Source: Epithemia pelagica
Lineage: Eukaryota > Protista > Bacillariophyta
Assembly: GCA_946965045.2 (NCBI GenBank)
Contig: OX337234.1
Location: 2,728,001-2,792,000 of the forward strand
DNA length: 64,000 nt
Direction of reading: 5' to 3'
How positions within the stretch are numbered: position 1 is the first letter of the stretch; the number at the start of each line of letters is the position of its first letter. The notes under the pieces were generated by a model that searched no databases, had not been told where the DNA came from, and saw nothing but the letters and a program-made list of their open reading frames with translations. Positions 5,001-29,471 of this stretch are shown here, in pieces. The translations under genes were made by a program, and so were the position numbers.

Positions 5001-5285
5001 AGCGACGACAACCTAGACCCAGGAGAGGGCGACAACGAATTCTCTGCAACGACCATGCAAGAAATCGAACTCATTTTCAAGTACGTTGCACACAACAACC
5101 CTTCCCGCATCGAAGAAATGCGACAATTTTTAGAAAGAACAAAGTCATTTACGAATGACACAGACGCGCAAGATGCTTGGAGGTTTGCGCAGACTTTGGT
5201 ACAGTCTGGCAACCCCAACATCGCCGACTCGCGCACCGGCCATGTGGTCCCGCATGAAGATAGGGCCAAAGGGCCACATGAGTAA
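2094..5285 (+). CDS. ORF1 of the CRE-like element (1063 aa, low-complexity termini)
   Basis: Long ORF inside the element; its stop codon overlaps the ORF2 start region (ATG at 5278). Confidence 0.65.
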   Translation: MGRDADPPWAIPAENMIPMAKPRPNCQPNADPPPPIGWKHIQRTAATTWTMESLHGLRKNKQSKQRQPSPLSTRHHGKPQSPKKAKNTEPNGYPDSPNVLRSKGPNPPRSHRCSKPNKRMTKTSPQMTLPDSRSTTTGHRHETNIKEQMHVDNSTVNVSLPRSGTHPPPTTNQETTTRATAKQIDDMASKTPNTKPSICPPICPPPTRMTGQLDQALQRVIAQLQMTRPTNQPKGLGHKTSENRVFHPKLSAEAPTDQPNYHQHPKMQVHSKPSSGRRQTRSKSNLTALSPLPLVDTKQHSTTAVTPDRRNINKENKKTNKKTTEEPTTDIHTEKTTVTTHDTNEKNTKNNTNNNNDKTTEKTNTNNNQDGNEQNTYGHTEEETQPTTKNKTNHDDTTTTVNNEPGSNSEAGTPTAKNPYLQPKTGTKRPPSSEPKTLIHLHVAVNHHQNPQIESTLPRLTEQAIKTHLNEVFFHHSKREEPMWLQVHSVDFLETKQSGSRQFRSDNQTRSTKGSGHTSTFHVTLSPAPANDVFDTEIFTEQGLRFVLQMWHKHHNDDFVYDEFDSQTVLRPGTKQSNPTINPRWDQINVYQPACNNRTSDTFGIVVGVPAQTIKHRRAALDLTGDIQNTLTPHLPRKLNYLDFFNHVGCRTGTFSGELKNKQRGQVPAIYITASLRNNFDALLRSYNAYQAANRNTELKWNHNNIQIIPMPTSQANRTATLEALKDIDQFFGACVRIKLKPINPEATDGDWKRLRHLREFVAVFPEFNNEDPDTQYYTLYLRKTPDTHLLTTNTIRQHPDFPENILLPTLAAVAATPPRQQTTNQDPTTPSSSSHTNKLLAFTNRLLRRKHNNLEDNTDEADADVLTTPTTKPKNPNSPPTNKRSASAMQPTDEEASDPYDDGTDWTPVAAQTNQNHFADRTSQNDDSKPPAKRNQFAALAEQTEDEQNNDDLMDTEESDDHSRALIGSDDNLDPGEGDNEFSATTMQEIELIFKYVAHNNPSRIEEMRQFLERTKSFTNDTDAQDAWRFAQTLVQSGNPNIADSRTGHVVPHEDRAKGPHE

Positions 5286-8438: not shown

Positions 8439-11400
8439 ATGGCGGTTTCGATGCGAAGCAATGCGGTAAGGTCGTCGTCCAACAACTACTACTACTCCGA
8501 GTTCGACGAGTACCACCACTATCTTTCCTCCGATGGAGAAGGAGAACCACGAATCCGTCCGTCGCGACGTCACGAACAACCTCCCGTGTCGTCGGGACCT
8601 TTGCCACACTCGTTGGCGGCGGCCGTGTCTCACCATCCCAATCACACGCAGCAGCACCACCGTCCTCCTCCTCCGGTAGGTCGTCGTCGTGGTCGGCGTC
8701 CTCGTCGTCCTCGTCGTCGTCCTGGAGACGACGAGTGTCTTCTGTGTGGCTGCAATCCACACGATCCCCTCTTGTATTGGGTCTTTGTCTCCTTCTTGTG
8801 TGTGGGAACCTGTATTGCGTTTGTGGTGGTATGGAATGCCGCTCCCCGCCATTACTACTCCACCGTTCGCTACCAAAGACACGAGGATTCGGTGCTTCCG
8901 ATCCACCACGTTCACTCGAATCGAACTCCGATGTTTTTGACTCCACAACAGCAACAAGAACAACTCGAACACCAACAACAACTCGAAAATCAACAACAAC
9001 AAGTCGAAAACCAACAACAACAACCAGCACAAGCACTTCGGCCCTTGCCCATTGTCCGAGTTCGCCATGGTCAAACGCCCAAAATCAAGGTTCGCCTGGG
9101 GACGGGTACCACGGGCAATACCAGCCACCATAATCCTCCTCCCACGGCACCACCGACGGTCGAGTCCCTGCCGCAAGACACGTCACCCATTATTCATGCA
9201 TCGTCATCGTCCTTGGTGGATGAATCCTTGTCGTCGTCTCATGGATGGTCATACTGGACATCCTGGCTGTTTGGATCGTCGTCGTCGTCACCCTATTGGC
9301 CCGACTCGTTGGTCGAAGGTGTTCCCGGAGAAGTGGCCGACCAAGCCTATCTGCAAACCTTGGTCGACTTGGAACGACGCATCAATACCTTGTACCCTAC
9401 CGCCAAAGAACAAGCACAAGCACCACCGCAGTCATCGTCGTCGTCGTCGTCGTCGTCGTCGTCCACAAGCCTCGTTTCCTGCCGCCGTGTCCCCTATTCC
9501 AACCCAACTGCCACGGACCGTACCAACAATCGCACGGATGATTCGTCGTCGTATTTTTATTATTCCACCAATCCCATTGACTCGTGTCGTCCTCCCAAAC
9601 CAAAAGCATCCTTGCAGGGCACCACCACCACCACCAAGGGGGAACCATTGTCGTCGTCCTCCTCCTCCCAGGACCAAAACCACAATTACCAGGGACCCTA
9701 TTATTATTACAATCCACTGCCCCACACGGCTCGCATTGTGTGTGATCAAACCATTCCGCCCCAACAAGCCGTGCTGTTTGAGCAATTGTGTCCGGAACCC
9801 GTGACGGGCCGATTGTTTCCTCGGATTCCCACGGCGACGTCGGGCCTGGAACTGATGCCTCCGATTGTTACTCGCTTTGATCATGTTCGACCCTTTTCCA
9901 AACCCGCCAAACTACAAAAGGATTGTGACGTGCCGTGTTTGAGTCGTGGCACCATGGCCTTGACGTCGTATCGGTACATTGAAGGGACGAATTGGAAAAT
10001 TATCATGTCCATGGAAGGTCCCGTGTATTATCCCGAACTCAAGGTCGATCCCATGGCCTGGAAACAACATCAATTTTATTCCACCACGTCCTTGCAATCG
10101 GAAATTCCCATTCCCTACTTTTCGCACACGGATTATCCCATTTTGGATTCCACACCCGTCGATTTTACCAAGGCCATTCGGGGTGCCGTCTTTGTCGCAC
10201 GCAATTGTGTGAGTTCCAATCGTCGCGAACAATTGGTGCGGGAACTCAAGGCCTTGTCGTCGTCCAAGAAGGACGATCGTGTCGTTCGCATTGAATCCGT
10301 CTCGTCCTGTGAACACAATGCCGAATTACCGGCCGGGGCCGACGTGTCGGATAAGCAGAGTATATTGAACAAGTACTTGTTTGCCTTGGCCTTTGAAAAT
10401 CAATGCGCCACGGATTACATTACCGAAAAACTCTGGGGTGCTTTCATGGCGGGCACTGTCCCCGTCTATTATGGAGCGCCCAATGTTCGCGACCATGCCC
10501 CGCCCCATTCCCTCATTCTCGTGGACGACTTTGCCACGACACAAGCCTTGATGGAGTATTTGGAACAAGTCGCGTCCAATCAAACCCTGTACGAGTCTTA
10601 CCATGCCTGGCGGTACCAATCCCCACAACCGTTTGGGACCAAATTCAATTTTACGCACACTCATGGGACGTGTCGTACCTGTCGATGGGCCTATGCCCGG
10701 TTGTATGGATTGGGATGGAATGCCGTTCGTCAACAAGTCCAAGATGTCCGCATTCCACGCCAAACCTGTGTCCAGGCCACGACAGGGTTGTTGCAACATC
10801 CCGCCACGGAACAATGGATCCATGCCTCGACCGGTACCACACTCCCGGCGACTCGATGGAAGAAAACAACAAGCCCCCAACCACAACAACAACAACAACA
10901 AGACCAGCACAACAAGAAAACAATGCACACGACCACAAAGATCCACACCAACACGTCCACAACCCTGGCAAGTCAAACGGCCAGGTTTCTCAACACCGAG
11001 CAGCAGTGTCTCGAAGGAACCCTGGCTCAAGACAAGATTACCTTGGACCTGGATCCTCACCATTCACAACAGGGAGGAGGAAACGTTACCAAGGCTTCTG
11101 TAGGGGCCAAACTGGTCCGTGTCGTACGTCAAGTCGATGGTGTCATTGATATGGAAGTTTATGCCGTCCATCCAAATGCCTCCTCCTCCTCGTCCTCCTC
11201 CTCGACTGTCGATCCTCTGGTTCAATTGCATTTGCGCGTCTCGGCCTTGTCGGCATCAAGAGCAAGCTTTGCCCGTCTCCAACGAGGTCGAGGACGATTG
11301 CAAGATGGACTCTCTCGCATTACCATTCTGGCCTCGCCCAAGACGGTGACGGTTTCGGCCAAGGCCAATGTGTTGATTGTCAGCAAACTCGTCTTTCCCC

Positions 11401-18907: not shown

Positions 18908-21538
18908 TCAGGAGCGCGAAAAGCCATCCATGGACGTATCCACAGACTCCTCATCTTGAACAAAGAGTGAAAAGATATTGTCCTTGTCGTCGGTAAACAA
19001 GACATCGACAAGTTTCGACCCAAAATCCGAAACACCATTCGGCAGACGGTTCTTGTTCTTCTCCAGAAACTCGTGTCCAATCCGTGTAACGACAGCCACT
19101 TGATGTGGGTCCAGGTCATCCACAGGCTCACCATGGAGCTGTCTCCAGTGACGACGACGGCGTCTGTGCTTGCTTCCAGAACCCCCAAGTCGCCGTCGTC
19201 TACTCTCGATGCAGACAGAAATGTCGGGAATAGTATAGGCTTCTGCCAAGTCGTAATTGACTTCAAACCCCAAATCATGTAATCCACCCACAGTAATGTT
19301 GGAAAGGATATTGACCGAATTGATCATACCGGTCAAGATTTCATTTCGCAAGCATCCTTCGTCCCAATGAACATAAATGGTACCCTTTTCTCCATCTTCT
19401 TCAATGGGAACTGTCCACTGACTGACATCTCCTTGTGCGCCACTGGTTTGTAGAATGTTCCGATACGCCTCGTTCGCGTGTCTGCCGGTGTACTCTCCCA
19501 GTTCCTCATACAGACCATTATCCTTCCACAAGGTTCCCAAGCCCAGGACATGTGCAATTTCGTGCGTCACTACACTCCCCAATGTGTTTTCATTCACCAT
19601 GGTCCACAAATCTACCGTATCCAGTGCCAGGTAGCCCGTAAAGCTTTTGATGAATCCCTGTGGATCCGTCCAGGTCAGACCCGGTCCCGCAAATCCCAAA
19701 ATGTTCAAATTGTTCGAACCAGACCCATCAATGGACGCCGCGGCCGCTTCAATGTAGATATCATCGACACTAAATCCCAAGACATTGTGACTGGTTCCAT
19801 CATCCGCCGTAAGAACTCGGCCCCATGTTTGCTTGGCGTTGAGAAAGGCTTTGGAGAAACTATGGAGTAGACTACCACTCTCCAAAAGACCTTTGGAAAC
19901 ATCCACAATCTCGATGCAAATATTGAAATTGTCCGGATCATTGTGTTCACAGAGCTCGGTTGCGGGAGGTTCCACGAGGTTTGTGTTTCCCCTCTCGTCC
20001 ACTTGGAAGCAATGATAACCGGTTGAGAAGCGAAAGTCACCGCCCTCCAGAACCCGGTTCCCATTGACCTTGACTTCGTAGGAACCATTTCCTTCATCAC
20101 AACATATGCCATCGCCGTAATCATCCATCCCCCGAAAGCAATAGGTCCTACCAGATTCAATGTCAGTCGTGAGCGAGCCTTGCGTTGTCTCTGTCCGTTC
20201 GTTTTGAAGGATAATCGTGCCTTGTTCGTCGGTAATTTCAAACGTAAACTCTTTGGGGAAAGCATCAGCGTTCCAGTGCACTTCCACTTGTGCCTTGAGA
20301 GTGTTTTGACTTCCAGTCCATACAGTACTAGTCGAAGGGGGAACAAACGAAGGAGTCACTAGGAGATCTTGGGTCGGACGCGGCGATGGAAGCGACGATG
20401 GCGTCGTCAGAGGTGCGTTCGTGGGCCATGAAGAGGGATTTCTGGATGGCACATTGGTGGGCCACGGAGAGGGTGGTTGCCACAGAGAAGGAGGGATGGT
20501 CGGCAGAGGTGTTGGGACTCTCGACGGGTTTGTTATTGGAGACTTGGATGGAAGGGATGACGGCGTCGTGAGAGGTGCTTCTGTGGGCCATGGAGAGGGA
20601 TTCCTGGATGGCATGTTGGTGGGCCACGGAGAGGGTGTTTGCCACAGAAACGGTGGGAGGGTCGGCAATGGTGTTGGGACTCTCGATGGGTTAGTTGTCG
20701 GAGACATGGAAGACCCTCGTAGAGCGGGTGCCGGTGTACTTGAGGATGGGTTCTTGGTGCCATCATCCTTTGACGGCACTTGCGATGGAGATTTTGATGG
20801 CATTCGAGATGGTGCCTCTGTCATCACCGATGGGGTCGTCGTGGGATGAGTGGAAGATGGAAATGCGGAAGGCCGCAGCGTCAGTTCCGGTCCCTCCAAA
20901 GAAGGACGTACAGTTGTGACAATGGTCGATGGGGGAGCGGATGGAATCCTGGTGGGCCGTAGAGATGGCGCTGGTGTGGTCGGTGGATCGAACATGGTTG
21001 GTTCCTCGGATGGACCTGTGGATGGTGTTTTGGATGGCCGACGCGATGGAGCGACCGTCATTGCTAAAGGAGAAACTGTTGGATCCAAAGACACTTTGGA
21101 AGCCGGTCCTGCTGACGGCGAAGGCACATTCTTGTCATCTAGTGTTGGAGCAACAACCCAAAAGCAGGTTGCATCGGTTTCGAGCTCCTCGACTGGACCA
21201 GTCTTGAACTCCACCTGCAACGTGTAGCAATACATCCCTTGGTCCAACATCTTGGGTGAAAGGACAGACACATTGCTGGTAGCTTCATCTGACACCTTGA
21301 CTTTGAGTTTGTGTTTCTTTTCTTTCTTGCCATCTGGACTGGTTTTCCAATATTCAAGCTTGGCCTTCTCCACGGATTCGGGAGGAAAGGTTGCCTCAAA
21401 TCGTACGTGGCCCGTAGACTCAATAGAATCTTGGACCGGAACGAGACTTGCCAAGTAGTTTTCCTTGGATGCAGCTGTGGAAGTGAATGCAACCACCATG
21501 ATGGTGAGACAACCAACCAGCCGGCTGTAGTGCATCAT
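18908..21538 (-). CDS. Secreted leishmanolysin-like (M8) zinc metalloprotease with Pro/Thr/Ser linker
   Basis: HEIAHVLG, HWDE..NEILTG and ITVGGLHDLGF; signal peptide after the ATG at 21538. Confidence 0.85.
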   Translation of the reverse strand: MMHYSRLVGCLTIMVVAFTSTAASKENYLASLVPVQDSIESTGHVRFEATFPPESVEKAKLEYWKTSPDGKKEKKHKLKVKVSDEATSNVSVLSPKMLDQGMYCYTLQVEFKTGPVEELETDATCFWVVAPTLDDKNVPSPSAGPASKVSLDPTVSPLAMTVAPSRRPSKTPSTGPSEEPTMFDPPTTPAPSLRPTRIPSAPPSTIVTTVRPSLEGPELTLRPSAFPSSTHPTTTPSVMTEAPSRMPSKSPSQVPSKDDGTKNPSSSTPAPALRGSSMSPTTNPSRVPTPLPTLPPFLWQTPSPWPTNMPSRNPSPWPTEAPLTTPSSLPSKSPITNPSRVPTPLPTIPPSLWQPPSPWPTNVPSRNPSSWPTNAPLTTPSSLPSPRPTQDLLVTPSFVPPSTSTVWTGSQNTLKAQVEVHWNADAFPKEFTFEITDEQGTIILQNERTETTQGSLTTDIESGRTYCFRGMDDYGDGICCDEGNGSYEVKVNGNRVLEGGDFRFSTGYHCFQVDERGNTNLVEPPATELCEHNDPDNFNICIEIVDVSKGLLESGSLLHSFSKAFLNAKQTWGRVLTADDGTSHNVLGFSVDDIYIEAAAASIDGSGSNNLNILGFAGPGLTWTDPQGFIKSFTGYLALDTVDLWTMVNENTLGSVVTHEIAHVLGLGTLWKDNGLYEELGEYTGRHANEAYRNILQTSGAQGDVSQWTVPIEEDGEKGTIYVHWDEGCLRNEILTGMINSVNILSNITVGGLHDLGFEVNYDLAEAYTIPDISVCIESRRRRLGGSGSKHRRRRRHWRQLHGEPVDDLDPHQVAVVTRIGHEFLEKNKNRLPNGVSDFGSKLVDVLFTDDKDNIFSLFVQDEESVDTSMDGFSRS
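20385..20695 (-). repeat. Two-copy 162-bp (54-aa) coding tandem repeat
   Basis: TNPSRVPTPLPT..PSPWPTN..PLTTPSSLPS twice; GTTGGGACTCTCGA at 20511 and 20673. Confidence 0.85.
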
Positions 21539-22327
21539 GATCCGTGCCGTCCGAAAATGCCTACGACGAACGGTCTGCCACTCCAAAATATGAGCTTTTC
21601 CAATGGCGCTCATGAGATGGATTCATCCTTGCGTTCCGGACTGGTCCAAAATTTCACTTTGGAACGGCGGGAAGGAGGCTCTTTCAAACGAACATTCCCC
21701 TTGTGGTTGTGTGTGGGCGGTCTGCGAGAGAAGGATCCAACCGACCAAAACCATGTGTCCAAGCCATTCTTATGTAACTGAATGAAACTAAAGCCTGTGT
21801 GACGATCCGTTGGGTGACACCGAGTATGTTCTTTCTTCGCACCGCTATCGTTGGAGCTAGACACATGAAATACATACACAAAAGTTCCGAAATGTACCAA
21901 CCACGTGATAGCATACCTGCCACGCTCACACACCAAGGACGCCTTGGTAAGGATGTTCTCCTCTAAGCGTTTGGTGGATAGGACGTACAAAGATCAAGAA
22001 TAAGAGAGCATCGTCAATCGTCTTTTTTTTTTCTTTTTTTTCTTGTAGAGATTTTGATATCAAAAGGGGGAGTTCCCGGATCGCAATGCAATCAACCCCC
22101 AGTAAAATTCCGCCCCCAATTCTGTTGATAATTCAAAGGGGTCCTCTAAGCTAGACAGTACAATATGGTAGAGCTACTAGCTATGAGTACCTTATTATGC
22201 GACATGCCCGACACAGATTACGGAAGATACAAGATACCTTTTGCACTACTTAATCGTAAACAGTACAATCCGCCTCAACATGTGAGACACACTTCAACCC
22301 CAACAATACACAGAATTCAGTCCAATA

Positions 22328-22348
22328 CCAGCTAACGGTGTAAACGGT
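22328..22348 (+). repeat. Left TIR CCAGCTAACGGTGTAAACGGT
   Basis: Reverse complement of 28432-28452 with one mismatch. Confidence 0.9.
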
Positions 22349-22848
22349 CGTAGCCGGCCTTGCCGAGACGTGGCCAGAAGCGCCTTCATTTACTATGACA
22401 CAAATAGTGAGAAGCCCTTTTGTTAAATGAAAAACTACCATCAGCCAAAATTTTGGAGATTTAGGGTAGCCCCTAGCTTGGACCCGTTTCAACGGATCAA
22501 TTGGACCCCTGAGAGCGAGACCAACGGTCGGAAATGATCCAATGGTCATCCAAGCAACATTCCCCGCCGTTGGTCTCGCTCTCAGACATCCAATAGGTTC
22601 CCAAATTTGGCTCCTAAAAGAACAGCCCCTTTTTTCGTCGGATGGTACTCACCAAAAAATGAGCGGCCTATGGAACTTCAGCCGACGCACCAACACTAAC
22701 ATTAATACCACTACAGTAAATCTATGTTAATCGCACATTAGTCTCATCCAATTTTCCAAAAACCAACCATCTCGTCCAACTGCGTTTGACTTGATTTCGA
22801 TACCATTATAAGGATTACATCCCTATCCCCGAGAGACAACAAACAACG

Positions 22849-25800
22849 ATGTCTGCATGCTCTTCTCACCAAGCAAACGAAACAGCAACCATGGATCCCT
22901 GCGCCTGTTGCCCCCTAAGCAACGACCTATTTCTACCCTCATCATTGCGAGAGAATTGCAGCACCTCTGCCAACAAAGAAAATACTGGTGATCCAATCAG
23001 TTCCACCTCAACGAAAGTCACAACAAAGAACAAGAAGAAACCAGCTAAAACTCCCTTACAACCACAACGTCGTTCGCGGAGACAGCCCTCTCGTGGCTCG
23101 AGAAAGAGAGGAGGCGGTCCTCCACCTCCTGCCTCTGCGGCATCTCCAAACAAACGAACAAGAAGCCAACGCCAAGAAGATAATGCACCCGTTGAAGACA
23201 CTGTTTTCGAGCTCCGCCGCATCCACAAGATCATCGAAGACTTCAAGAATGAAGACTGGGTCCCCTGCTCTGTTTTCGGATCTAACCGTTTGAAAGAATG
23301 GGAGGATGAAGATTTTTTCTTCTGTGGTCAATGTGACAACGCTGACTGGGATGAAAAGTCTGGCGAAAAGCTCAAGGTAAATCGGAAGAGGAAAAAGGGT
23401 CCCTACACATGTATTGCCAAGCACCGTAATTTAGTTAAACCAACGGCCCGTAGATATCCTGATGGTCCACCCCCAAGAATCAACAAGAAGAAACGACGAC
23501 AAGATCGACGGCATAGGCGAAATGACCCCCAGCCCATACCTACAAGTCGATTTCAACCTCCTGTTATGGGACCTAGTGCTACTCTCTCCGACATTGAAGA
23601 AGAGGATGAAGAAGATGACGTTGAAAACAACCGTACAATCTCGTCTGTAGAGCAAACAGAACCTCAAGAACAATTGGTCGATGATGGAACAGGCCCACCT
23701 GAACAAGAAGAAGCTTCTACTCCCATAGAAAGTCAAGGAAATCAGTTAAATGATTCTGAATCAAGCGAGTCTGAAGCACCTGTTGAACAAGACAATACTG
23801 TTACGATGGCCGTTGATTCTTCTGTAGATATGCCAGTGCCCATACAACCATTGAACCCGTCAATCAACCTTTCGGAGTTATCACTACAGGAAGAAGTGAG
23901 ACTGTTGAAAGAACGTCTTAGAAAATCGGAAGAACAAATAGAGACTCAAACAAAGAAGCTTCGCAACGAATCAGACAAGCTGCGAGATGCTAAGAAGAAG
24001 ATAGAAGAACTCGAACGAAATTGTGCTACATGCCAAAGTCGTCGCCTACCCACCTGTGTCACATCGAATGACCAGGCAGACACCCTCGTACAACATATCA
24101 GGAGTGTCATTGAAGATGCAACTAAGAACATCCGGAGTAGTAACAGTCGTGCTTTGAAGTATTTCTACGGCCAAGTCGCAGAGTTGTGTCTCGACGAGAG
24201 CGTCCACGAAGGGCAACTCAAGCAATGTTCTTACTCAGTCTTTCGAGACTATGTAAGGCAGAATATCTATACCCCCCACCGTGTACTGAAACAAATGGAT
24301 CTTCGGGGGGGTGTACTGAACTACGAAGGTATCGAACTACTGCGTTCCGTAGAGACAGATGGTGTTCCTAGAGAGAAGACGCTTCTTCCTAGTTCTGGTT
24401 GTATGAAAGCCTACGCTGCTTTGGTAGAAAGCTTTGGACGCAACATCTGTCCCTTCATCATGAAGACAAGCTCGAAAAATGGCACCGAAGGTTTTGCTTT
24501 TCGTGCAGCCGATGTACTCCTTTGCCTTCTGAAGGCTGGTCATCTTCTAAACTCCGAGGCCGTGGTGAGGTCGATACGAATCGCTGCCAGTCTTGATGGC
24601 GCACAATTTACTAAGAATTTGTCCCACACCTTGGTTGGTATCAAATTCAACGATCCATCCAACCCATATGCGCAGTCACAACAATCAGTCTTTCCTGTTG
24701 GATGTGTGGCAATGCCAGAAACGACTGAGAACGTGGTTGGAGTTTTTGCAAGAACCTTGGAAGAAATCAAGGAAGCCGTTGGAGTTGTATCCAAGGCACA
24801 CAAGATAAAGAAACCCACACTCTGTTTCAATTGTGATATGAAATGTGATTGGGAACTCAGTGGACGAGGGGGTGCCGCCAAGCAGCATACTTATCCCTGT
24901 TCTAAATGCGCCATTCACAGTGGACAGCTATGCCAACCATCGGGGATAAAACCAGACAAGTGCAAGACCTGTACTCAATTGGATCATCATCGCGACCCAA
25001 CTTGGATTTGCCGCCATGTAAAGATGCTCACTGAGGAGCATACTGCAACCTTGAAGAAAGAGGTCGACGACTTCCGTAATGGTCCCCTGCCTCTAATCGC
25101 TAAAGACCTTGCTTTGCTTGAGGAGCATAGCGAACTGTCGATGCAAGATGATCCCAATATTGTTGCAACGGAGATGCAAGCCAACGATATCCTTTCGATC
25201 CAATTTGACTTGAACCGGGCGACACAGGAGCAGAGGCAGGAGTATTCTCGACTGGTCACTTCAGATTTGAGGTTGCGTCGACTCCAAATGACAGGATCGT
25301 TGGAGGAACGACAGGAACGATTAAAGAATCAGAGAGTCAAGGAGTGGTCCTACAAAAGAGCATTGGAATGTCTGGACAATGCCAAGGCCTCCCAGAAGCG
25401 TATTGCCATCGTGCTTATGATGGACGCCATTCCATGCTTGCTCCATCTCGAGAATCGAATGGGGATCAAGTTTCTGACCATGGTGCTAAAGACGGGGATG
25501 AACAACTCGATCAATCCAAAGGACGGCCTTGAATTGGAGTGGATGCCTCATACAACAACAACAAAGGAAGACCGATGTGCTGCATTCGTCAGCAAGGTCA
25601 ATGGCATTATGAATTCAACAATTCTTGGATCAGAGGACCAACCAACCCAATGGACAGTGCCATACGACACCAAAACTTGCAAGATTGGAGACATTACAAT
25701 GGATAACGTGAGGATTCGGAAGCTCCTCATCAAATTTGAGCTGTTGATTGATTGTTGCTTTGTGGATAACGAGAAGGCCGGCCTCTTTAAGTCTGCAATC

Positions 25801-26539
25801 TACTATTTCAGGGAGGGTCTGAAGAAAGTGAACGTGCGACATGAAATGTCGGACAGTGAGATCTTTGCTTTTCAGAAAGACATCGACTACTTCTACAGAG
25901 ATTGGTGCTCATTGTATGGAGTCGAGGGGATAACAAACTACGCCCATATGCTGGGTAGTGGCCATTGCATGGAATATCTATTGCATTGGCGTAACTTATG
26001 GTTGCATAGTCAACAAGGCTGGGAAGGTAAGTTCAATCCACAACTGTGTATTTGACTGAGGGCTCCATCAACTGACGGCTGACCTCCTATGTGTTATAGC
26101 CTTTAACAGTTTGTTTAAAAGGTTCTACTTCTCTCGGACACAGAGAGGAGGCGCGGGGAATCGGGGAACGGCGGAGAAGAGTAGGTTGCGGTCAATGGCT
26201 CGATGGTTGCAGCGCCGAATGGTGTTCCTCATTGGAACCACTGAGGAAGAGATAAAACAACAATTGGATCGGTCGCAAGATGAGATAGAAAACTTCGATG
26301 AATGGATTCGTGACAATGGGGGGACACTGGAGTATGGCTTGTCAAACAAGGACGGACCAATTCGAGTGGAGGACTTGGAGGGGGCAGTGGTCGATGACTG
26401 GGAAGTTGGTCTCCCTCCGAAACAGAAATCGCCGCAACAATCTTCCGGACAAGTTCCGGAAGAAGCAAGTCTCAGAACTGTGGACCTGTTGCGTATGTTG
26501 GATCAGAATGATGATCTGGAGAATCTAAATAATGAGTAA
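22849..26539 (+). CDS. RAG1/Transib-like DDE transposase, about 1205 aa in 2 exons (22849-26026, 26100-26539)
   Basis: SLDG, CDMK, YPCSKC, PCLLHLENR, ITNYAHMLGSGH and SQQGWE|AFNSLFKRF. Intron GTAAGT..GCTGAC..TAG at 26027-26099 joins the two ORFs in frame. Confidence 0.8.
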
Positions 26540-26590
26540 TGAGAAGCACTTGATGGATCGACACTAAATTCTTATATATCTTATTGCAAA

Positions 26591-28114
26591 CTAGTTGAAC
26601 TGACGAATTAGGAGAAGGACCTCGTCAGCATCTTCCCATTTATGAATTTCTTGTTGATCCATGGGGAGGTCGTGGTCGTAGAACACTCCGCCGATAATAC
26701 GAGACACAACAAACGGGCCATTCTCGTTACGGTTGACTGCTATGACCTCATACACGTTTTGCTCGTCCCAGTCAGTGAACTGGTGGCCGATCTTGATACG
26801 GCTACTGGGGGAGTCTTGGGCAGTCGACTTGGCAATTTTGTTAGGTGAAGCAGGGCTTGATGCTTTAGAGTGCTCGGGATCACTCTCGGTGGTGTCGGAA
26901 GGTTCATGTTGGTAGACATCGGTCGTGTCAGTCTTATCGTCAGATGATGTTGGTGTTCCTTGGAGAATGTTCTTGAGGTCCTCAGTGGGAGGGTCATTCT
27001 TGAGCTTTCCCTTGTGGTCAAGGGAGTACTGATACTGCTCGTATCCCACTACAACGCGACAATGAAAGTCGGACCAACAAAGGTCAACTCGCTGGTCACG
27101 AGATCTGACCTTGAAATTTTCTTTTTCCTCGGATGTAGATCCCTTCACAAGTGTCACACGGTGCTCGGGCTTGAGGGAAGTTCCATTGGGACCGTCGGCA
27201 AGAGTGGGTTTGCGATCGGTACATCCATAAGTACTGCCGAATCCAAGCAAGCCTCGTAAGAACTGGAGGTCGTCAGAACTCCGAAACCGAATAATGGTGG
27301 TAGGGTAGCTAATCTTGACTTTCTTCCTGGTGAACTTGGGGTCGATATCGAGATAGGACGCAGAACCCTTGGTTGTATGGATGTCTATGCCTTGGATTCG
27401 ACAAAGCTGGACAATATAGGTCCAGGTTTCTGTAGGTACAAGACCAATGGTATCGCCAGTCACTTCGTGTTCCTCGGCCTGGCCCGAAGATTTGTTCAAC
27501 AATTTCACGAGAGCCTTGCGAAGAAGGAATAGGCCAACAAAAGATGACTGGTGAAAGCATCTTGGGGGACGAACTGCCTTATCCACAATGAAACGACAAG
27601 CGTGCTCGTTCGGAAAGCAAAGCTTTGTCTTCTCCTCTAATGGATGTAGACAACCAACCGGAGGATCACTGTCAATGATGGGCATCCGGAAACGAACAAA
27701 GAAGAAATTGTCAAGGCCTTCAGTCCAAATGTTCTTGGGAGACTTGAATTCATGTAGGGAAAATACAAAAGCCGGGTGGGAAATAACGGAGGAGGCATCT
27801 TCTACGACGTCAAATGTAGTGGACGATTCGTATAGTTCCGTGTTTCGTGAACCAAGGCCCAGCATCACCCTGGTGTAATTGTGCTTGGGCAGTTTGGGGT
27901 GAGACTGGTCATTTAGATTGTAGCGGGGAAACAAAGGAGGGAACAACACAAACCTGAGGCCGGTGGCATTGATTCGAGAGTGGATGCGTGCGATCGTCGT
28001 ATCGTCTTTCTGTCCGGGAAGATGGATGTGGACAAACGACCCGATGCGGAGGTGATCGTCGAGTCTCTTTACGTAGAAAGGCGGCTTATTGATGTCCGGT
28101 ACACTCCGAAACAT
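26591..28114 (-). CDS. Transposon accessory protein with putative N-terminal BAH-like domain
   Basis: Intact ORF of about 507 aa from the ATG at 28114, inside the TIRs and tail-to-tail with the transposase (51-bp gap). Confidence 0.7.
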   Translation of the reverse strand: MFRSVPDINKPPFYVKRLDDHLRIGSFVHIHLPGQKDDTTIARIHSRINATGLRFVLFPPLFPRYNLNDQSHPKLPKHNYTRVMLGLGSRNTELYESSTTFDVVEDASSVISHPAFVFSLHEFKSPKNIWTEGLDNFFFVRFRMPIIDSDPPVGCLHPLEEKTKLCFPNEHACRFIVDKAVRPPRCFHQSSFVGLFLLRKALVKLLNKSSGQAEEHEVTGDTIGLVPTETWTYIVQLCRIQGIDIHTTKGSASYLDIDPKFTRKKVKISYPTTIIRFRSSDDLQFLRGLLGFGSTYGCTDRKPTLADGPNGTSLKPEHRVTLVKGSTSEEKENFKVRSRDQRVDLCWSDFHCRVVVGYEQYQYSLDHKGKLKNDPPTEDLKNILQGTPTSSDDKTDTTDVYQHEPSDTTESDPEHSKASSPASPNKIAKSTAQDSPSSRIKIGHQFTDWDEQNVYEVIAVNRNENGPFVVSRIIGGVFYDHDLPMDQQEIHKWEDADEVLLLIRQFN

Positions 28115-28431
28115 GGTGGATTTAGGATACAAAGAACGTGTTGTCAATCTGAATCAAAGGAGTTGTGCTTGATTGTTGTGTCAAACAACCATCTTGATCG
28201 TCTGCATTTGGGTCGTTTGTCATTAGTTCTCCATTGGATGTTTGCTTCCGAGTGAGCTTTTGGCAAGAATTGATGAGGTGAATGTGGATGGTGTTGCGAC
28301 AGAAAGGACATTTATTTCTTAACAAAATGTAAGTCGGATTCGGATCCTATATTTTATGATTAAGGTCGCCAGTCGGCATTTTGGTGAGGGCAGGCGCGAA
28401 ACTTGGCCCTGGAGGCACGTGTACACGGGAA

Positions 28432-28452
28432 ACCGTTAACACCGTTAGCTGG
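28432..28452 (-). repeat. Right TIR
   Basis: ACCGTTAACACCGTTAGCTGG followed by TA. Confidence 0.9.
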
Positions 28453-28739
28453 TATTGCGGTAGGATCACTACTACTTTCCAGCGGCAACGTAAATTACCA
28501 TATAGCTTTCTGCTAAAACCTTTCGTATCTCTCTATAGTATAGACACCTCTGGGGAGTGTTATGAGTTACCTGTGCGCGCTATGCATTATTCAATTCTTC
28601 TGGGACGGAAACTTCAGCGAGAGTGGGGGACGAAACAAAAAAATGCTCCTCGAAAACAACAAACGAGTCCTCTCTGTGGTCCTCTCACAAAACGATCCAA
28701 CAAACAATTGAGAACACAGCCCCAAACAACACATTCACC

Positions 28740-29471
28740 ATGATCGCCGCACCTTCAGAACTCAGCCGAGCAATCACAAGTGGAGATTGGTCCATGGCAT
28801 CGAAACTGGCCAAACGGTTCCCAGAACAAGCCCGAAAAAAGTCCAACCGTGAAGGGTTGTTCGATGGACGCACCAACGCCAGAGTATATCCGATTCATGA
28901 AGCGCTTGTGGCAAATGCCCCTCTGAGTTGCGTCAAGGCCCTGGTGGAAGCTTATCCGGACAGTCTCTTGAAAGCAGAGTCTTCGTATCATCGTTTGCCG
29001 TTGCACTGCGCTTGTCGCAAGAATGCCGATCCTGCCGTCATCTCATATCTGGTCCGGAAGAACAAGCAAGCGTGTCTTGAGGAAGATTCACTTCGACGTC
29101 TCCCTGTGCACTATGCATTGACAAATGGCGCCAACCCACACGTGGTGTCCATCTTGGTGAAAGCCGATCCAGGGTCCGTTCGTGGCTGCGACTACTCGGG
29201 CTGGACGCCAGTCCATGTTGCCATTAATGTATGTGCGTCGCCCACCACGGTGGCAACCATGCTCAAGGCCTTTCCAGAATCGGTCCTGCTCAAAACCAAC
29301 AAGCACTCGAGCATGCGAAGTGTGATACCCAAAAGCAGTCCGTATCGAAAGGAACACAAACAATTAATCGAAGAGACACAAAACGTTGTCCAAATGGACA
29401 TACACTTGCCTTCCATGCGTTACAATTCCATGCGGGCGAGAGAACAAATACTCCTATATTGCTCCCTCTAA
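28740..29471 (+). CDS. Ankyrin-repeat protein
   Basis: YPIHEAL, LPLHCAC, LPVHYAL and GWTPVHVAI repeats. Confidence 0.85.
   Translation: MIAAPSELSRAITSGDWSMASKLAKRFPEQARKKSNREGLFDGRTNARVYPIHEALVANAPLSCVKALVEAYPDSLLKAESSYHRLPLHCACRKNADPAVISYLVRKNKQACLEEDSLRRLPVHYALTNGANPHVVSILVKADPGSVRGCDYSGWTPVHVAINVCASPTTVATMLKAFPESVLLKTNKHSSMRSVIPKSSPYRKEHKQLIEETQNVVQMDIHLPSMRYNSMRAREQILLYCSL

Follow-up and report, generated by a model that had tools for sequence, protein, structure and literature searches.

To our knowledge, how the transposase ancestor of RAG1 came to need a partner is an open question, RAG2 being the sole well-studied case. In RAGL transposons, the second protein combines kelch repeats with a PHD finger, the ends read CAC, and insertion duplicates 5 bp of target (PMC7204232, as far as its available part goes; PMC9435367). 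Transib elements (HzTransib; subgroups I and II) are described as encoding a transposase only and as making 5-bp duplications too (PMC9435367). Transib is a member of the CMCT clade—EnSpm/CACTA, Mirage, Chapaev, and Transib, together with Plavaka, ESTA, and Lanisha—which is characterized by CA..TG termini, a CxxC motif, a His pair spaced by 3–4 residues, and duplications of 2–5 bp (PMC12730594, available part). Here, we describe a two-gene DNA transposon within a 64,000-nucleotide stretch of the Epithemia pelagica genome (contig OX337234.1, positions 2,728,001 to 2,792,000; “the window”), representing an apparently undescribed lineage in which a transposase with a predicted RAG1 fold is accompanied by a partner whose predicted BAH domain lacks the aromatic methyl-lysine cage.

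Like RAG1–RAG2 and the RAGL transposons (ProtoRAG, protostome RAGL, and AanRAGL of Aureococcus), the element combines a RAG1-fold DDE transposase, as predicted, with two linked, convergent genes inside inverted repeats, and its partner, a protein unrelated to RAG2, is encoded where RAG2 would be, as the second of two genes arranged tail to tail. Whereas the partner in those systems is built from kelch and PHD modules, here it comprises predicted BAH, basic, and SH3-like barrel domains; the ends, invariantly CAC in RAGL, are CAA (CAT or CAC in some relatives); and no 5-bp duplication is found at the window site. In contrast to Transib, the second gene is constantly present here, the transposase carries a SAP-like insertion, and the duplication is apparently 1 bp long. 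RAGL and Transib are excluded because of the CAA termini together with this apparent duplication. Similarities also exist with the CMCT clade, namely the 5′-CA..TG-3′ termini, the CxxC motif, a His pair ahead of the catalytic Glu, and, in several members, accessory genes (PMC12730594, available part); however, the His pair here is spaced by five residues, the duplication is apparently shorter than the 2–5 bp of the clade, and a BAH partner is not mentioned in the part of that source available. Lanisha could be compared by name only (PMC12730594 and PMC8245031, both in part; its own description is in Repbase Reports 2020), and overlap of our element with Lanisha or a Repbase entry seems unlikely. 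A literature search, with Repbase and most subscription papers outside its coverage, found no description of the element, and a motif search of two supplements (one in part) found no transposase motif and a lone match to the terminal 10-mer, inside a longer sequence.

The association of the two genes was evident in metagenome loci retrieved via the transposase (the best 80 of 175, at 23–45% transposase identity). Where a locus extended 1,300 bases or more downstream, a convergent partner homolog lay 3′ of the transposase in all 50 cases; the count was 59 of 67 where it extended at least 300 bases, and 59 of 80 overall; reversed open reading frames (ORFs), searched as a control, yielded no match. 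Across 30 gene pairs, the identity matrices of transposase and partner were correlated (Spearman 0.67, a value reached in 0 of 2,000 shuffles), and the two gene trees (FastTree) had 19 of 27 splits in common, compared to a mean of 0.3 and a maximum of 4 in 1,000 shuffles. The partner is under purifying selection: its ratios of nonsynonymous to synonymous substitution rates (dN/dS) were 0.075–0.20 (22 estimable of 25 pairs), above those of the transposase (0.04–0.08). Linkage, tree match, and dN/dS thus indicate that selection maintains the partner as a component of the element, and we are nearly certain that the gene encodes an accessory, of whatever kind, that belongs to the element and is under selection. 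An earlier note, made from the window's letters, had proposed that the partner is transposon-encoded and travels with the transposase; its position inside the inverted repeats and the matching trees bear this out, and neither of the outcomes that the note had named as refuting it (no predicted BAH/Tudor fold, or homologs that are ordinary host genes without linkage to the transposase) was encountered.

Viewed from the partner's side, linkage could be gauged by proxy: 13 of 18 partner sequences were on contigs equal in size to those of the matching transposase cluster, and of 10 additional partner clusters, 8 had a member on a contig sized like a transposase-bearing one, with the qualifications that equal contig size is not adjacency and that members were listed for 10 of 22 transposase clusters. 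A partner-first search of metagenome contigs returned 83 pattern matches, none confirmed as DNA loci. The partner family comprises nine close clusters and 132 representatives at E ≤ 0.001, and none of the cluster members listed (18 and 31) bears a protein name. That BAH domains are host chromatin modules, and that the genomic context of the 132 representatives was not read directly, might suggest that the gene was captured from a host or is passive cargo of no use to the element. On the contrary, position and orientation are fixed in 59 loci, the trees match, dN/dS lies far below 1, and the relatives listed include no named host protein, so this explanation is already largely refuted and we consider it very improbable.

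We next consider the domains of the partner, whose ORF holds every motif quoted in the earlier note. Its model predicts three structured domains, the first a BAH domain with the 120–140-residue beta-sheet fold of that family. Predicted structure and fold and profile searches agree on this assignment, which the note had made from residue spacing; the nearest solved folds include the methyl-lysine readers SHL and EBS, and DNA methyltransferases and silencing proteins stand at the top of the fold lists. The six-bladed kelch propeller of RAG2, of which the note had seen no trace, is incompatible with the confident model because residues 9–165 are taken up by the BAH domain and 436–507 by the small barrel, and the remaining 200 residues form three long helices and long strands; kelch and PHD proteins are also missing from the listed results of the fold searches, which by itself excludes nothing. 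The acidic, serine-rich linker that the note placed before the C-terminal domain was recovered as well and is predicted to be disordered. For that terminal domain, an SH3/Tudor-like barrel is supported by the model, whereas Tudor specifically was not distinguished from other SH3-like barrels.

The note had suggested a possible functional analogy with the RAG2 PHD finger, in a cofactor that might target the transposase to chromatin or counteract silencing. A true analog would read a methylated histone lysine and steer the transposase to marked chromatin. The position of the partner beside a RAG1-fold transposase, like that of RAG2, the proximity of SHL and EBS in fold space, and the resemblance of the barrel to Tudor and chromo-barrel readers among others, are in keeping with this idea. 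The cage in which SHL holds H3K27me3 consists of Tyr41, Trp63, and Tyr65 (PMC6013494, available part); EBS, AIPP3, BAHCC1, and mouse ORC1 are further methyl-lysine readers with a BAH domain. In the partner, however, the aligned positions are T40, L57, and P59, and the family rows with an aromatic residue there number just 1/108, 8/113, and 11/113, such that the cage is absent family-wide. Nor does the barrel offer an obvious substitute: its only mostly aromatic columns (F446, Y455, and F506) are spaced like core residues, and the domain is absent or cut in 26 of 121 rows. As the cage is non-aromatic and a PHD Cys/His pattern, even in loose form, occurs in 0 of 121 rows, reading of methyl marks in the manner of the RAG2 PHD finger is unlikely, and we regard this explanation as quite improbable. 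The observation of the note is confirmed and its interpretation partly supported. In principle, the domain is nearer to those BAH domains that bind unmethylated histones, the nucleosome core, or other proteins (PMC13068663, available part).

Between the BAH domain and the linker lies a conserved basic domain that the note overlooked, and most of the invariant columns of the family fall within it. Net charge is positive in 99% of 119 rows (median isoelectric point 9.6), and the domain likely binds nucleic acid, DNA in particular. It had no PDB sequence match and no consistent Pfam match, and its similarities to viral folds are not meaningful (TM-score ≤ 0.10); language-model features place it nearest to unnamed clusters and to clusters that are partly Transposase_21 (15%) or RAG1_RNase_H (12–42%), which is a lead only. 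Comparison of the partner with the transposase core gave hhalign probabilities of 0.3% and 0.1%, and we rejected the idea of a decayed core copy; no partner–transposase fusion was found among proteins of 1,041–2,970 aa, which is weak evidence.

Taken together, we lean slightly toward the partner being, as second gene of a two-gene transposon, a required accessory of transposition that would help the predicted RAG1-fold transposase to act on chromatin-embedded DNA while not itself reading methyl marks on histones. The basic middle domain would grip DNA, either the element ends or the target; the cage-less BAH domain would contact a protein or nucleosome surface, as some BAH domains do; and the tethered SH3-like barrel might act as a second, partly dispensable docking module. 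Several points weigh against this explanation. The profile used to score linkage had been iterated on those very ORFs, the seed profile alone having found 27 partner homologs and one iteration the remainder, and eight loci with at least 300 bases of room have no partner ORF (two with weak traces and six without any, including L049 with 980 bases and L070 with 1,121 bases). One supported partner split contradicts the transposase tree; moreover, linkage alone makes linked genes share a tree, and the match therefore indicates co-inheritance and is silent on physical contact. The dN/dS pairs are non-independent, since a single clade of six members supplies 15 of 22, and dS approaches saturation. 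The cage was mapped by sequence-profile alignment (E = 0.0018), not by superposition. Finally, DNA binding, the contacts of the partner, and its need in transposition are matters that we infer.

The main rival explanation is an anti-silencing factor acting outside the transposase complex, with the basic domain on the element's own DNA and the BAH domain recruiting or decoying host silencing machinery, such that the element stays transcribed. Linkage, selection, the basic domain, and the cage-less BAH domain are all consistent with this, and the DNA methyltransferases and silencing proteins heading the fold lists would fit it. Accessory genes are known from Plavaka (PAG) and VANDAL elements, with such a role established for VANDAL and proposed for Plavaka (10.1101/2025.02.11.637652, available part); together with the Harbinger Myb/SANT proteins, these share with our partner the status of a selected second gene in a cut-and-paste element, whereas domains and transposase lineages differ, a comparison made by description rather than sequence. 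On the other hand, no conserved target repeat array was seen in the element beyond one sub-terminal palindrome, and retention in 50 of 50 loci, even where transposase identity falls to about 25%, would suggest a core role over host-specific counter-defense. We thus hold anti-silencing to be a credible, if less probable, alternative. A DNA-binding-like domain joined to chromatin-type domains might equally suit a transcriptional self-regulator, which would bind the element ends or promoters and limit or time transposase expression or activity; it is without direct support, and since a pure brake would be less likely to be retained in every lineage, this appears improbable.

Returning to the partner as a required accessory, a more far-reaching version is that an unnamed RAG1-fold lineage with 1-bp duplications independently gained an obligate, BAH-containing second subunit whose fold is partly new and which brings the transposase to dock on nucleosomes. 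This is conceivable, though we doubt it; if true, it would represent a second solution to the job of RAG2 and imply that RAG1-type enzymes repeatedly recruit chromatin-engaging partners. In any case, the family provides a two-gene system that is compact, intact, and apparently mobile to this day, with natural variants by the dozen, introns lacking in some of them, and an unrelated partner in the place of RAG2. It makes testable whether RAG1-fold enzymes generally need a DNA- or chromatin-engaging helper, and adds a transposon-borne cage-less BAH domain and a basic domain without fold assignment.

Mobility of the element was evident from contigs in three runs of one study, representing no more than two samples. 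In each of the three runs, one contig connects position 22321 directly to 28458 and thus represents an empty allele, while further contigs depart from the window sequence at 22322/22323 and 28457 into different flanks; these observations indicate that the element is mobile, exists in several copies, and has an empty allele at the window site. The empty-allele joint omits 6,136 bases, one more than the element itself (a single letter is ambiguous, and the letters between the sides are not known), and because a C stands on both sides, a 1-bp target duplication is indicated, apparent from this single site. If it holds, target geometry would extend beyond the 2–5 bp range of the CMCT clade. The flanks at the window site differ (CAGTC versus CGGTA), and the empty allele retains both. 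Among the nine relatives with both ends, whose flanks may be chimeric, none showed a duplication of 2–9 bp, and flanking bases were identical in three, near chance. An excision footprint was judged less likely than a true empty site because the empty haplotype is more diverged from the window (over about 450 bases, 7 substitutions and 19 gap letters) than element copies are from each other (17 substitutions and 6 gap letters in 3,452 bases). Contig depth was ~335 within the element versus 70–88 for junction and empty-allele contigs, a ratio compatible with about four copies, although depth is not copy number.

The termini themselves are conserved, with CAATACCAGC in four of the nine paired-end relatives, CATTACGG in four, and CACTACCAGC in one; accordingly, the window element opens with CAATACC and the relatives with CAA (4), CAT (4), or CAC (1). 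The first 10 bases of the left repeat open the paired ends of L004, L005, L006, and L016. In L016, the 7-mer ATCCTAC occurs in both flanks (98–105 and 5133–5141), one and two bases off the element ends, by chance or as an offset duplication. Another copy of the CAATACCAGC 10-mer lies within an ORF at window position 9116, where the rest of the terminal repeat is absent, and is probably due to chance. We also observed raised contig depth at the left end and several internal joints (22436 to 22570, 22600 to 25972, 26036 to 28431, and 22644 to 22729), the regions concerned being 22323–22770, 25972–26036, and 28414–28457; this suggests short non-autonomous derivatives with common ends, although several short-sided joints may be artefacts.

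Single-sequence scans of the element's proteins against Pfam and PDB sequences gave no matches. The RAG1-fold DDE core of the transposase is predicted via a relative, L015 (31% identical), whose modeled core has the RAG1/Transib fold; identity to RAG1 in structure alignments is about 10–13%. The CxxC motif is invariant in 45 of 45 sequences, and the two residues of the His pair are found in 44 and 45 of 45. A second ATG at 22891 is a possible alternative start, and intronless relatives read QQGWEAFN uninterrupted across the position of the predicted intron. No confirmed transposase relatives were found in prokaryote genomes or viral contigs.

Table. Features of the two-gene element, in window coordinates. 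aa, amino acids; nt, nucleotides; pLDDT, predicted local distance difference test score.
Feature	Position	Strand	Details
Whole two-gene DNA transposon	22323..28457	.	6,135 bp; inverted ends and contig joints
Left terminal inverted repeat, starting CAATACCAGC	22323..22348	+	26 nt, 96% complementary to right arm
Right terminal inverted repeat	28432..28457	-	Paired with left arm
One C, recurring at 28458 (target duplication of apparently 1 bp)	22322..22322	.	Single site
Sub-terminal imperfect palindrome	22500..22594	.	37-nt arms, 84% complementary
Transposase exon 1	22849..26026	+	Catalytic D583, D663, E1059; C684xxC687, H866, H1033, H1039
Predicted 73-nt GT-AG intron, phase 1, directly after catalytic Glu	26027..26099	+	Splice-site bases
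Transposase exon 2 (C-terminal helices, acidic tail)	26100..26539	+	Stop 51 nt from partner stop
Partner gene (507 aa), convergent with transposase	26591..28114	-	ORF
Predicted BAH domain, residues 9–165, without aromatic methyl-lysine cage	27620..28090	-	Predicted structure, fold and profile comparison
Conserved basic alpha/beta middle domain with long beta-hairpin, residues 185–385	26960..27562	-	pLDDT mostly >90
Acidic Ser/Pro-rich linker, predicted disordered, length variable	26810..26959	-	pLDDT <50; family spacer 16–115 residues
Predicted SH3-like beta-barrel and C-terminal helix, residues 436–507	26594..26809	-	In 95/121 family rows

Upstream of the partner ATG, at window position 28139, the majority contig copy has 8 extra bases, which probably account for a 546-aa database version with a longer N-terminus; close homologs begin at the start of the window ORF, not at the longer N-terminus. 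Within the wider family, L021, L024, L035, L053, and L080 form a divergent sub-lineage, of which L021, L035, L053, and L080 have CATTACGG ends; in L021, L024, and L080, the partner is more divergent and its C-terminal barrel poorly aligned. Outside the element, the left neighbor (18908–21613, minus strand) encodes a leishmanolysin-like M8 peptidase (Pfam E 1.4e-8) with a Pro/Thr/Ser-rich repeat region, and the right neighbor (28740–29471, plus strand) encodes an ankyrin-repeat protein with divergent paralogous copies among the contigs.
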